DNA of 25,686 nucleotides, taken from positions 1 to 25,686 of IMG/VR virus record IMGVR_UViG_3300020043_004904; one strand, written 5' to 3'. The notes under the pieces are model-generated. The model saw only the letters and a list, made by a program, of their open reading frames with translations, did not search any database and was not told where the DNA came from. Made by a program: the position numbers and the translations under genes. Within the stretch, counting starts at the first letter, position 1, and the number at the start of each line of letters is the position of its first letter. Of this stretch, positions 7,283 to 14,011 are shown in pieces. The stretch comes from a virus (lineage: Duplodnaviria > Caudoviricetes).

Positions 7283-7371
7283 CCAACAAAGCAATCATAC
7301 CACACCACCCCACCATGTCTAATCAGTTTTGCTTATTGATTGGAGCGGATTGATAAAGGAAAGTTATTAGA
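7283..7371. repeat. 89-bp direct repeat, copy 1 (contains a leftward promoter)
   Basis: 81/89 identical to 8197-8285 by manual alignment; minus strand TAGACA-16 nt-TATGAT with extended TG. Confidence 0.9.
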
Positions 7372-8065
7372 ACAGGGCTGTAATGTTTACGCCATACACC
7401 TCAAGCCAAGCCTGCGCAGGCCATGACTTTACTTTTCCCCAGCGTGGATCAACCACTTCAATGGGTTTGATTGCTCGATCCTTGCACCACTTCTTGAGCG
7501 GCTGCCATTGGTATTGGTCGCGGGTAGCGTTTTCGATGGCAATGATTGTGGCGTGTGATTTGCATCGGCCTAACTCGGCTTGCAGCGTGTTGGCTTTGCG
7601 TACGGCATGTGATGCGGTCGCCATTGCTGTGGCTTCGCGTCGGTTGCCGATTTCGGCCTTTGTTGCTACTGCATGGTCGCGTTCGATAGCTAGGCGCTCT
7701 TTGTCCTCCTCAGCCTGTACCAAGGCGAGCAAAGCCTCTTTGTATGTCAGGGGCAATGTTACAGGCTGCACAACTTGGTTTTTAGTCGCCATCCAATAAT
7801 CGACAAGCTTGGCGGTGTATTCTGGGCATAGCTGGGCGACGATGATGTATGAGTCGCGTTCGTTGACCACATAGACAGATTCGGTGCGATTGCGACCCAT
7901 TGAATCTTTAAATTGTTCATCCTCAATTTGAGGACGGACAATTACCGCCTGATCTGCAAGGTTTTCGATGGTGCGCTTGACGTTGTCATGGCGCTTTTCG
8001 ACGACGACAGCAATTTGCTTGCTTGTCATGGTCTGGCTGGGTGTTGCATTGATCAGGGTGTGCAT
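7367..8065 (-). CDS. Rha-family phage regulatory / antirepressor protein
   Basis: TMTSKQIAVVVEKRHDNVKRTIE, DSMGR..YVVNERDS, AKLVDYW, LPLTYKEAL and KAEIGNRREATAMA motifs; start could be 8065 or 8074. Confidence 0.85.
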   Translation of the reverse strand: MHTLINATPSQTMTSKQIAVVVEKRHDNVKRTIENLADQAVIVRPQIEDEQFKDSMGRNRTESVYVVNERDSYIIVAQLCPEYTAKLVDYWMATKNQVVQPVTLPLTYKEALLALVQAEEDKERLAIERDHAVATKAEIGNRREATAMATASHAVRKANTLQAELGRCKSHATIIAIENATRDQYQWQPLKKWCKDRAIKPIEVVDPRWGKVKSWPAQAWLEVYGVNITALF

Positions 8066-8078
8066 ATTTTGCATCCAT

Positions 8079-8192
8079 AAAAAAGCCTTAGATTTTGCAG
8101 TAAGGTGAAAGAGGGTCACGACACCCACTTACTGCAAATCTAAGGCTATTCGTTTGTCGTGATTGCTGTAGCGGTGCTGATCGACTTTCACC
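8079..8192 (-). ncRNA. C4-like antisense/attenuator leader of the Rha gene
   Basis: 20-bp stem (8084-8104 with 8128-8147) followed by a U-tract; two 8-nt boxes at the loop are complementary to boxes at 8155-8162 and 8185-8192. Confidence 0.6.
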
Positions 8193-8196
8193 CCGA

Positions 8197-8285
8197 CCAA
8201 CAAAGCAATCATACCACACCATCCCATTCTGTCTAATCAATTTTGCTTATGGATTGGCGTGGATTGATAAAGGAAAGTTATTAGA
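8197..8285. repeat. 89-bp direct repeat, copy 2 (contains the leftward promoter of the Rha leader)
   Basis: 81/89 identical to 7283-7371. Confidence 0.9.
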
Positions 8286-10933: not shown

Positions 10934-11518
10934 ATGTTGAAATCAGAACAGATCAACGAACTGAGTGCGGCGCTTGCCAAGGCTCAATCTGAGATCGAAA
11001 ACGCAAGCAAGACCAGCAGCAATCCTCACTTTAAATCCAAGTATGCCGACCTAGCCGAAATCCTGAACACGGTTCGCCCCGTGTTTAGCGCACACGGCTT
11101 AGCTATCGTGCAAATGCCGAGTTTTGAAAGCGGTATTGCTCATGTCGAAACCTTGTTGACTCACAGCAGTGGCCAATGGATCAGCAATGTGTGCAGCGCA
11201 CCTGTTGGCAAGCAAGACGCGCAAGGCGTTGGTAGCGCAATCACCTATCTGCGTCGTTATAGCTTGGCAGCGTTTGCAGGCGTGGCTCAAGAGGATGACG
11301 ATGGCAATAGCGCCGTAGGAAAACATGCGCCACAACAGCAGGCAGCAAAGCCACAACAACAACCAATGACCGCCGAAATCATGGAAAAGGCTGCGCAGTC
11401 GATCCGTGACGGCAAAGCAAACGTGCAGCGTATTGCTAAGGCCTACATCCTGAGCGACGAGCAGCGAGCGGCGCTGATCGCTATTGAAACCCAAGCACTT
11501 GCGGAGCAACAAGCATGA
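10934..11518 (+). CDS. ERF-family single-strand annealing recombinase
   Basis: [22 protein letters not shown] and [20 protein letters not shown] motifs. Confidence 0.92.
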
Positions 11519-11939: not shown

Positions 11940-11996
11940 TGGATATTATTTAGAATGGATGGTACAATAGCATTCCGACCAAAGAGTGCTATTGTA
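11940..11996 (+). promoter_or_regulatory. Internal promoter embedded in a hairpin covering the HNH translation start region
   Basis: TGGATA-17 nt-TACAAT (extended TG); 13-bp stem 11963-11975 with 11984-11996. Confidence 0.6.
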
Positions 11997-12472
11997 TGAA
12001 ACATTGTAAGAAATGCGGTGAAGAAAAGCCACTAAGCGAGTACTACAAACACGCTAAGATGGCTGATGGACATTTGAATGTCTGCAAAGATTGCAAGCGA
12101 TCCGATGCAATCAATGTAAGAAATTCAAACATTGAGTATTACCGAGCTTATGACCGAGCGCGAGCAAATAACCCTGAGCGCGTCCAGTCGCGTGAGAATT
12201 ACGCCAAGTCAGAAAGCGGAAAGGTTGCTCAAGGTGCGGCAAAAAAGAGATTTTCCGAGCGAAATCCTGTAGCCAGAAAATGCACCCATGCTGTGAACAA
12301 TGCGGTTCGCGATGGAAAGCTAATCAAGCAACCATGCGAAGTTTGTGGAAGCACAACAAAAGTGCATGGTCATCATGATGATTATTCAAAGCCCTTAGAT
12401 GTTCGATGGCTTTGCCCAAAACATCATGCTGAATGGCATAAGCGCAATGAGCCAATCAACCGAAACGGTTAA
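11996..12472 (+). CDS. HNH-type (His-Me finger) endonuclease with zinc-binding motifs
   Basis: CKKC and CKDC pairs; PCEVCG..VHGHHDDYSKPLDVRWLCPKHHAEWH. Confidence 0.75.
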   Translation: MKHCKKCGEEKPLSEYYKHAKMADGHLNVCKDCKRSDAINVRNSNIEYYRAYDRARANNPERVQSRENYAKSESGKVAQGAAKKRFSERNPVARKCTHAVNNAVRDGKLIKQPCEVCGSTTKVHGHHDDYSKPLDVRWLCPKHHAEWHKRNEPINRNG

Positions 12473-12517: not shown

Positions 12518-13021
12518 ATGAACCTATACGACTACGGCGACGAACTCGCCGCCAAGATTGCCGCCGTCCAGCAGATGATCGAGGATGGCGAGGAAGTTGA
12601 GGGCAAAGCGGTGCAGGCCGCTTTGCGTGACATGGTAAGCGCCGAGGGCGATTTGCACGCCAAAGCTGCAAACGTGGCGCTGTATATCCGTGAGCTTAAG
12701 GCGCAGGCCGAAGCAGTCAAGGCCGAACAAGATCGGTTGGCAAAACGTCGAGCAAGCCTTGTGCGTCGGGCTGAATCGCTCACTGACTATCTGCTGGGCG
12801 CATTGCAACAACACGGCATTGATCAAGTTAAGACGCCGTTAGTGACGGTGTCGGTGCGGATCAATCCGTGGTCAGTTGAAGTGGCAGACCCAAAGGCATT
12901 GCCGCCTGAATATCTGACGGTTAAGGTTGAGCCGAACAAAAAGGCGCTGTTGGCTGCGCGTGAGTCGGTGCAGTTTGAGGGCGTGACATATCAAAAATCC
13001 ATCAGCTTACGCATCAGTTAA
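12518..13021 (+). CDS. Siphovirus Gp157-family protein
   Basis: KAANVALYIREL..KAEQDRLAKRR..LTDYL..VKTPLVTVSVRINPWSV..LPPEY..EPNKKAL pattern. Confidence 0.85.
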   Translation: MNLYDYGDELAAKIAAVQQMIEDGEEVEGKAVQAALRDMVSAEGDLHAKAANVALYIRELKAQAEAVKAEQDRLAKRRASLVRRAESLTDYLLGALQQHGIDQVKTPLVTVSVRINPWSVEVADPKALPPEYLTVKVEPNKKALLAARESVQFEGVTYQKSISLRIS

Positions 13022-13069
13022 TCAGTAAAACTGATTGGACGAATTGAGCGGTTTTTGACAATATCACTT

Positions 13070-13146
13070 GTGTGGCTAGGAGGCATCCGAAAGCGTGAAA
13101 CGTCTGGCACGTTGCCACACACTCCACTAGACGAAACCTGTAGACG
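13070..13146 (+). ncRNA. Second three-way-junction antisense-type RNA, forming the leader of the CRISPR array
   Basis: Closing stem GTGTGGC/GCCACAC; loop AAACGTCTGG pairs with CTAGACG (13127) and TAGACG (13141). Confidence 0.55.
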
Positions 13147-13148
13147 AG
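13117..13148 (+). repeat. Spacer-sized flanking direct repeat, upstream copy (preceded by CC)
   Basis: Contains CACTAGACGAAACCT (13125-13139), identical to 13425-13439; abuts repeat 1. Confidence 0.85.
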
Positions 13149-13416
13149 GTTCACCACCGTGTAGGTGGTTTAGAAGTGCTGTACTTGTCATTGATCATCG
13201 TTAAAGCTGTTCACCACCGTGTAGGTGGTTTAGAAGTATAACGCCTGCGTTTTGATCGTCCATCATGCGTTCACCACCGTGTAGGTGGTTTAGAAGACAA
13301 CGGGACACAAGCCGCGATAAGGGCAGGCGTTCACCACCGTGTAGGTGGTTTAGAAGTGAATAACGCCGGATCGCAGCCGATGCCAGATGTTCACCACCGT
13401 GTAGGTGGTTTAGAAA
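13149..13416 (+). CRISPR. Type I-F CRISPR mini-array without cas genes: 5 repeats, 4 spacers
   Basis: GTTCACCACCGTGTAGGTGGTTTAGAA(G/A), 28 nt, at 13149, 13209, 13269, 13329 and 13389; unique 32-nt spacers; CCACC-GTGTA-GGTGG hairpin and 8-nt TTTAGAAR tail match the Cas6f-type repeat layout. Confidence 0.97.
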
Positions 13417-13448
13417 ACACTCAACACTAGACGAAACCTTAGACGGGG
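13417..13448 (+). repeat. Spacer-sized flanking direct repeat, downstream copy
   Basis: Abuts repeat 5; related to 13117-13148; carries the SD-like GGGG of the next gene. Confidence 0.85.
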
Positions 13449-13453
13449 TTTGT

Positions 13454-13621
13454 ATGTTCAAGTTTTTACTGATCGCCTGCGTTGTGACAAAAGGCGGTAC
13501 ATATCAAGATTGTGCACCAGGCGCGATTTATCAAACACAAGCCGAATGCTATGCAAGCGCCGCAGTCGTTGAAGATGACGCGATGGCGGACGGGTTTTTT
13601 TGTGCGTGCTGTTTGTGTTGA
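13454..13621 (+). CDS. Small Cys-containing protein, DUF1482/YebW-like pattern (55 aa; not in ORF track)
   Basis: MFKFLLIACVVTKGGTYQDC...IYQTQAECYA: hydrophobic N-terminus and spaced cysteines; family call tentative. Confidence 0.55.
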   Translation: MFKFLLIACVVTKGGTYQDCAPGAIYQTQAECYASAAVVEDDAMADGFFCACCLC

Positions 13622-13630
13622 GGTGGAGTG

Positions 13631-14011
13631 ATGAGTCTACAAGGACAGCTCGCAATCGCGCAGCGCAAAGGGCAAAAGCATTTTACGTTTTGCTACAACG
13701 TGGCAGACATGGCGGATGCTAAAGACGTGCGAACCGCAATGCACGGAAATGACTTGGCTAAAAACGCATGGTTGTGTAACGGCTATTTTTGGTGGTCGGC
13801 GGTTATTACCGTGTTTAGCCCAAACGCTGATGGCACGGTGACGGAAGTCAAGGCGTACTGCCGCGATACGATGCGCCGCCGTCCGCACGACTTAACAAAA
13901 GACCTGCACAAGGCGATTGAGCGGCTACACAAAGAGCATCCTGATGCTGATATGTCAATCAGCACAGTATCGGTCACTTGCAGCGTGGTGTGCCCAAAAT
14001 GGAATTCTTGA
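13631..14011 (+). CDS. Hypothetical protein (126 aa)
   Basis: SD GAGGTGGAG; packed in the operon. Confidence 0.65.
   Translation: MSLQGQLAIAQRKGQKHFTFCYNVADMADAKDVRTAMHGNDLAKNAWLCNGYFWWSAVITVFSPNADGTVTEVKAYCRDTMRRRPHDLTKDLHKAIERLHKEHPDADMSISTVSVTCSVVCPKWNS

Follow-up and report, generated by a model that had tools for sequence, protein, structure and literature searches.

A cas-less type I-F CRISPR mini-array in a P22-like phage was probably acquired by recombination of a spacer with its protospacer

The virus record IMGVR_UViG_3300020043_004904 of the IMG/VR database, analyzed here as a whole (25,686 nucleotides (nt), designated as the window), carries a small type I-F CRISPR array. Each end of the array abuts a copy of a 32-nt site, and the upstream copy is preceded by CC. 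How did an array come to lie within a duplicated phage site of spacer length? A preliminary description of this DNA proposed that a host array had held a spacer against the site, and that a circle excised from that array had integrated at the protospacer by a single crossover. We compared the array, its spacers and both copies of the site with array-less and array-bearing relatives. We consider it probable that the array entered by recombination of one spacer with the matching site in an RNA leader, flanked by a protospacer adjacent motif (PAM), and that this event split the spacer into the two flanking copies.

The array (13149-13416) comprises five 28-nt repeats, spaced at 60 nt, and four spacers (Table 1). 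It is a type I-F mini-array without cas genes, and the phage that carries it is P22-like. The Rfam model CRISPR-DR4 matched all five repeats, with 36.2 bits for repeat 5 and 32.8 bits for repeats 1–4 against a gathering score of 35; the last letter is G in repeats 1–4 and A in repeat 5. The repeat forms a Cas6f-type hairpin with an 8-nt 3' tail (z = -3.3), as expected of type I-F. When the 41 open reading frames (ORFs) of the window were scanned against PHROGs, those with matches were phage genes; an O-like replication protein, DnaB, Erf, SSB, terminase, portal and a P22-type capsid were identified with PHROGs and Pfam. The same scan found neither cas genes nor an integrase among the 41 ORFs of this partial contig, and the array, as is usual for virus-borne mini-arrays, thus lies in a viral genome without cas genes.

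We compared contigs of eight wastewater and activated-sludge metagenome runs with the locus, leaving out the rows of runs with a small share. All four spacers (32 nt each) have targets in wastewater contigs, which are 652-1341 nt long, and CC stands immediately 5' of the target each time, for which the chance expectation is about 3e-6 to 2e-5. The targets of all four spacers thereby define the repeat as 28 nt, the spacer as 32 nt and the PAM of the system as CC; the 5' CC PAM that the preliminary description had taken over from known type I-F systems is thus measured from the array itself. No spacer matches the window beyond 14 nt. Spacers 2 and 4 gave no exact match in IMG/VR, in the case of spacer 4 perhaps because its targets carry one difference. 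Judged by eye from motifs in the flanking sequence, the targets of spacers 2, 3 and 4 presumably encode, for another phage type, an AAA helicase, a small terminase and a primase. A promoter of the leader, together with host Cas6f and Cascade, would likely yield four CRISPR RNAs (crRNAs) against other phages; a promoter scan found no consensus promoter site before the array.

The 32 nt before repeat 1 and the 32 nt after repeat 5 have an exact 15-mer in common, at 13125 and 13425, i.e., 300 nt apart. Of 200 base shuffles of the window, one contained an exact 15-mer pair no more than 400 nt apart. The layout given in the preliminary description, with both copies abutting repeats and CC upstream, was confirmed. 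Aligned without gaps, the copies differ at positions 5, 7, 8, 24-29 and 31, of which the block 24-29 reflects a 1-nt indel after the core. That the duplication is real is settled by homology, since relatives without the array can be aligned over the whole site. Of 27 IMG/VR stretches that contain the 15-mer, 24 are chance matches in unrelated contexts, and the other three (L029, L030 and L031) represent this locus, with Gp157 96% identical. All three have a single copy, with CC before it and the gene at 13454 after it, as had been predicted for phages lacking the array; relatives that already possess both copies were not among them. Two further stretches were excluded from this count: L028, which stops before the site, and L032, a distant relative (34%). 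Compared with the array-less relatives, the window has exactly 300 extra nt across the site. Each of its copies also has a counterpart in the metagenomes: an array-less contig of run X14 (record 1) matches 13069-13151 with a sole difference at 13106, and 13417-13454 is matched without differences, again array-less, in runs X7 (record 16) and X9 (record 24). The downstream copy carries the purine-rich stretch before the ATG of the next gene.

The evidence for the involvement of a spacer lies in the register of the joins. At the right join, repeat 5 meets the first base after the PAM, and the end of the repeat has no letter in common with the phage sequence that it replaced. A repeat joined to the base after the PAM is the product of spacer insertion by Cas1-Cas2/3, and homology cannot make such a join. 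At the left join, where the upstream copy stops is uncertain within 3 nt (32, up to 35 nt after the PAM), because the phage sequence after the site and the repeat both start with GTT. Under a rough null model, whose length ranges we assumed, a duplication with its start behind CC and a length of 32 (or 32-35) nt is expected in 0.05-0.4% of cases. CC alone is weak evidence, because it belongs to the conserved stem of the RNA leader (described below).

These joins bear directly on a spacer-independent origin, in which the array came in by the GTT microhomology or together with a leader module that recombines, and unequal crossover of two phage alleles produced the duplication. Such an origin leaves the homology-free join at the base behind the PAM, together with the 32-nt length, unexplained, as it does a second PAM-registered join found in run X3. 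It would agree with the three shared letters at the left join and with the match of each copy to a whole natural allele. Three further observations fit as well: another module of the window, an antirepressor gene, sits between 89-nt direct repeats, int-alpA-like leaders occur in unrelated phages, and one contig drops the block of leader plus gene (13026-13631). However, a motif search found a single leader of this kind with the downstream motif in the window, and we regard this origin as improbable.

The preliminary description further noted that the mismatches at positions 5, 7 and 8 fall in the seed region and would avoid self-cleavage. These mismatches are standing variation of array-less phages in an AC-rich linker and are older than the capture; both alleles exist without the array, and we therefore rejected the idea that the mismatches arose as an adaptation against self-cleavage. 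Their importance would lie elsewhere, in that recipient and product alike could thereby withstand the donor spacer. Sites that mix the 5' and 3' parts of the alleles, which a single crossover requires, exist as well, as in a contig of run X3 (record 7), which has the downstream-type 5' end with an extra G.

Given these alleles, capture through a single spacer would have proceeded by two crossovers: one between spacer and protospacer, inside the 15-nt shared core, and another between repeat and repeat, five units apart. The product would consist of the PAM, a hybrid site, five repeats with four spacers and a second hybrid site. A seed variant that had escaped cutting would have served as the recipient, and the phage Erf protein is the likely catalyst. 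The product would be safe from the spacer that was used, as the PAM-bearing copy has three seed mismatches and the seed-matching copy has AA in place of the PAM; this fifth spacer would no longer be encoded as a crRNA because no repeat follows it. Of the features by which we judged a recombination product, joins in register with the PAM and the spacer length, an empty site in relatives and a phage recombinase (Erf) were found, and a donor array with the intact spacer was not found in the databases, genomes and runs searched. Either order of events yields an identical layout; we moderately favor one in which the phage first became joined to array-bearing DNA and repeat-repeat recombination later set it free, over the uptake of a free 300-bp circle, because it fits the reported spacer-phage recombination (Varble 2019) and the faulty excision of phage AP1.1. 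Recombination between spacer and protospacer is retained from the earlier proposal, while its host array and free circle lack support in the data.

A double crossover with a linear donor array that held a spacer against each allele of the site, five units apart, would also produce this layout. It accounts for each copy being a whole allele, calls for neither a circle nor a cointegrate, and suits a locus that has been hit repeatedly, with three CC sites that have repeat joins within 450 nt. Yet spacers would have had to be acquired twice at one PAM, within five units, and one spacer suffices since mixed alleles exist. We consider this double crossover very unlikely.

The other two CC sites lie downstream of the array. 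In run X3, a 113-nt contig tracks 13417-13465 and, after 5 nt, passes into a different I-F-type repeat, with the other end outside the contig. The 32 nt before this repeat correspond to 13439-13470, behind CC at 13437-38; because the phage sequence reaches 22 nt further upstream of this CC, the junction is not a plain spacer. With this second repeat variant fused to the locus, the phage population appears to meet hosts with at least two repeat types. In run X1, the repeat of the window itself is joined to 13562, directly behind CC at 13560-61.

Sister phages also carry the repeat. The exact repeat was found in five metagenome stretches, three of which (L039, L040 and L042) are relatives of this phage and have one or two copies in an accessory region near the lysis genes (L039, 1024-1051; L042, 52-139; L040, 657-744 on the minus strand). 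Of an antA gene that L039 has in full, L040 shows the final 21 codons, fused to its last repeat. L039 and L042, from different collections, share an identical phage-to-repeat left join. After the last repeat, the sequences of the sister phages continue into phage DNA, namely an antA leader, the antA C-terminus and the end of a further ORF. A DUF2591-like assignment of the run-on of L042 got no Pfam match, and the run-on of L039 had no matches. Two other stretches carry related repeats. In L043 (1330-1357, minus strand), a solitary A-ending copy of the repeat behind promoter-like sequence lies among pseudouridine synthase, pyridoxamine oxidase and EamA genes and could be a chromosomal solitary repeat unit. 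In L041 (minus strand, about 327-534), three divergent repeats follow a promoter-like stretch; the last letter is A in the repeat that contains the exact 27-mer and G in the one after it.

Because sister phages carry the exact repeat, a phage is as plausible a donor as a host, and we rate a Moraxellaceae chromosome and a co-infecting sister phage already carrying an array as about equally probable sources. The host is probably an unsampled member of the Moraxellaceae, a placement suggested by the capsid, whose closest named relatives are Acinetobacter prophage proteins (82-85%), alongside many unnamed metagenome proteins at 92-98%. A loosened repeat pattern retrieved four loci with other repeat variants. 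The closest chromosomal arrays have G-ending Moraxellaceae repeats that differ from the repeat of the window at two positions. In G048, an array with a G-ending repeat that differs by one compensated pair stands beside cas1 and csy1-4, which identifies the repeat as the type of csy1-4 loci. In L035 (9939-10028; G001:C93), cas2/3 and csy1 are separated by a degenerate repeat, a 34-nt spacer and a repeat, and this is where regulatory I-F1 mini-arrays have been described. The five metagenome matches of the exact repeat included no long host array, and the bacterial arrays with these spacers or with the predicted fifth spacer, which the preliminary description had called for, were not found in IMG/VR, GTDB, 401 Moraxellaceae genomes or the eight runs.

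Several of these results weigh against capture through a spacer. The exact repeat had no occurrence in IMG/VR or in a GTDB scan, the 401 Moraxellaceae genomes gave repeat look-alikes only, and 648 spacer or flank 32-mers taken from fetched loci yielded no match to the window longer than 18 nt. Neither a repeat-site-repeat joint nor the predicted fifth spacer was present in the contigs of the eight runs. As the host is unsampled, failure to find the donor is weak evidence of its absence. Furthermore, each copy is a whole natural allele (within 1 nt), so that the crossover point is unreadable from the sequence, and the GTT microhomology allows a spacer-independent join on the left. The junctions elsewhere are also uneven: the joint in X1 has a short side of 24 nt, was flagged as unreliable by the tool and may be a spacer or a run-on join; the run-on of L040 follows CT rather than CC in the sole allele seen (L039); the left joins lie behind CA in L039 and TG in L040; and that of L042 is 32 nt behind CC, but within a C-rich tract. 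Finally, the layout rests on a single assembled contig.

The last point invites the explanation that the contig is an assembly chimera, in which a host spacer identical to the phage site led the assembler from the phage into an array and back. The array-bearing form was seen at the site in none of the eight runs, whereas array-less alleles reach depths of tens to more than 1000; the source reads were not found, the best run holding 0.33 of the words; and arrays with this repeat carry sequence of this locus, as in the X1 joint. A single spacer would, however, share 23-27 nt with each of two alleles, while the copies share 15 nt exactly, and by reasoning alone, 23-27 nt falls short of the word length at which an assembler could place four spacers in order across 28-nt repeats. 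The left join common to L039 and L042 and the lack of a long host array with the exact repeat also speak against a chimera, which we consider unlikely. Taken together, recombination of a spacer with its protospacer remains the explanation that we favor.

Table 1. Positions of the array, the duplicated site and neighboring features in the window
Feature	Position	Strand	Evidence
Erf single-strand annealing protein, candidate recombinase	10934..11518	+	PF04404, E 5.7e-29; PHROGs
Gp157-family gene upstream of leader (synteny anchor)	12518..13021	+	PF05565; relatives 96-97% identical
int-alpA-like structured RNA leader; closing stem holds CC	13069..13134	+	Rfam RF02996, 31.1 bits, E 3e-5, model 1-71 of 71
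CC, 5' PAM of site	13115..13116	+	kept in 3/3 array-less relatives
Upstream site copy (putatively phage 5' part, spacer 3' part)	13117..13148	+	31/32 identical to L029 array-less allele
Repeat 1 (type I-F, ends in G)	13149..13176	+	CRISPR-DR4, hairpin
Spacer 1; CC before target	13177..13208	+	loose ends in run X1, 2 contigs
Repeat 2	13209..13236	+	CRISPR-DR4
Spacer 2; CC before target	13237..13268	+	runs X5, X3, X9; 0 differences in 1341-nt contig
Repeat 3	13269..13296	+	CRISPR-DR4
Spacer 3; CC before target	13297..13328	+	runs X3, X7; 0 differences in 657-nt contig
Repeat 4	13329..13356	+	CRISPR-DR4
Spacer 4; CC before target	13357..13388	+	runs X1, X9; 1 difference
Repeat 5 (ends in A); joined without microhomology to base after PAM	13389..13416	+	CRISPR-DR4, join comparison
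Downstream site copy (putatively spacer 5' part, phage 3' part)	13417..13448	+	31/32 identical to L030 array-less allele
Neighboring CC plus 32 nt; different I-F-type repeat fused right behind in run X3	13437..13470	+	record 5, 113 nt, depth 14.2
55-amino acid gene conserved in relatives	13454..13621	+	DUF1482-like as lead only, Atlas score 0.84
CC plus following sequence; repeat of the window joined to 13562 in run X1	13560..13593	+	1 contig, depth 18.8

The array appears to have landed in a transcribed leader, in which the promoter scan found no consensus promoter. This leader resembles the int-alpA RNA (RF02996), with the whole model aligned and both the closing stem and the second hairpin present, although its score in the window and that in L030 (32.3 bits) are under the gathering score of 35.8. 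The match surfaced on a 109-nt stretch only and was missed in a scan over 1601 nt; a relative in a Vibrio phage passes the gathering score with 39.6 bits. Similar leaders stand before genes in phages of Pseudomonas, Vibrio, Aeromonas, Klebsiella and Psychrobacter, and in six of the seven annotated phage matches that were fetched (one further record is unannotated), the leader lies just before a coding sequence. With a structure that we assigned following the Rfam alignment, two helices of the leader covary in 11 phage sequences, with 90.9% of cells paired and 7 of 12 pairs changed on both sides. Folded by itself for minimum free energy, the leader did not stand out (z -0.5 to -1.0).

The hairpin loop of the leader has a 5-7-nt complement in the tail in all 11 leaders, often twice and co-changing (per-sequence shuffle fractions 0.003-0.10). 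In the window (13095-13148), as across phages of several hosts, one or two such complements co-vary with the loop and lie just before the ribosome-binding site. This pattern suggests a pseudoknot or an antisense switch on translation beyond the end of the Rfam model. The 15-mer core is exact across alleles because it holds the first loop-complementary motif. In contrast to the int-alpA motif, the leader here is interrupted by the array, which separates the two loop-complementary motifs from the gene. The 55-amino acid gene that follows (13454..13621) had no Pfam or PHROG matches. In a contig of run X6, 13026 is joined to 13631, the leader and this gene being gone and 18 other letters standing between; the block is thus a dispensable cassette. 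Before the leader, 13041-13068 is strongly unlike L028-L031; runs X2 and X6 contain a comparable variant, which is therefore not tied to the array.

Neither a relative of the phage nor a spacer target was found in INPHARED and PLSDB. A lysozyme scan yielded no close relative (best 54%), and the 401 Moraxellaceae genomes, with two candidates scored per genome, contained no close prophage (best 82% over 341 nt); none of our statements relies on the genome among them that is flagged as unpublished. Elsewhere in the window, an 89-nt direct repeat (91% identical; 7283-7371 and 8197-8285) brackets the antirepressor-like gene at 7367-8128 (minus strand); this block, which is outside the coverage of the fetched relatives, looks like a module inserted together with a duplicated intergenic stretch. 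In addition, a 31-nt inverted repeat at 11945-12014 overlaps both a promoter-like site and the beginning of a gene for an endonuclease.

Virus mini-arrays have been described, in the parts of the sources available to us, as cas-less arrays with host-type repeats, and leaderless phage arrays were proposed to gain spacers by recombination with host arrays (Medvedeva 2019, PMC6858448; Faure 2019 as cited in PMC6858448, PMC7099407 and PMC8616872). The array of the window shares with them the lack of cas genes, targets in other elements from the same habitat and the lack of a host-type leader, and its repeat may likewise be of host type. It differs in having four spacers, above the typical one or two in the accessible text of PMC6858448 and PMC8616872, and in its duplicated, PAM-registered, spacer-length site with empty alleles. 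In those portions of the literature, the mechanism of mini-array acquisition is called uncertain (PMC7099407), and the closeness of mini-array targets to the arrays is called unexplained (PMC6858448). Recombination between spacers and phages is known from CRISPR transduction, where excerpts of the reports ascribe it to promiscuous phage recombinases (Varble 2019 and Watson 2018, via PMC8616872 and 10.1101/2020.10.09.333658). There, as here, a targeting spacer recombines with a phage genome; however, CRISPR transduction, as far as these excerpts tell, moves loci between bacteria in transducing particles, whereas the array of the window is stable in the phage, with both joins resolved and normal neighbor genes. 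Phage AP1.1, according to the part of the preprint at hand, integrates into CRISPR repeats and takes up spacers on faulty excision (10.1101/2020.10.09.333658). Exit from a host array with repeat-spacer units, after recombination at a different repeat, would be common to both phages, but AP1.1 uses attP and the repeat, whereas the entry point here is the protospacer and the partial contig encodes no integrase.

Phage-borne I-F repeats can also be processed by host Cas6f, as in Racr (PMC10651486) and in regulatory mini-arrays or Cracr (10.1101/2023.03.03.530964 and 10.1101/2024.10.29.618823). Going by the accessible sections of these papers, the first product here (leader, 32-mer and hairpin, without a 5' handle) would resemble the inhibitory RacrIF1 fragment; a Racr, however, is a solitary repeat, which the five repeats of the window are not. 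Cracr, in the same sections, has short or partial guides at cas promoters, in contrast to the 32-nt spacers here with full-length, PAM-flanked targets elsewhere. The literature searched, outside of which most subscription papers lie, yielded no array that sits within a PAM-registered duplication of spacer length and for which an empty allele is known, and the available parts of PMC7515739, PMC10076291, PMC13142298 and PMC8047081 contain nothing on this mechanism.

At this locus, the allele is known both empty and filled, and the joins are in register with a PAM that was measured from the array itself. The recombinational route proposed for such arrays thereby becomes a specific scar, open to counts in phage genomes and to reconstruction in the laboratory. 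The route may even recur: we tentatively suggest, with somewhat more doubt than confidence, that arrays of two repeat types aimed at this phage population recombined into neighboring protospacers of one promoter-supplying leader, and that the same event gave the phage an array against competitors, a Racr-like decoy and immunity to the spacer used. If capture through a spacer does recur in this way, spacer-length, PAM-registered duplications would be a general, searchable scar of the origin of leaderless mini-arrays and would explain why their targets adjoin the arrays. Capture at this locus would also imply that a spacer is a liability, a handle by which an escaping phage takes the neighboring spacers, and viruses could acquire the immune memory aimed at them.
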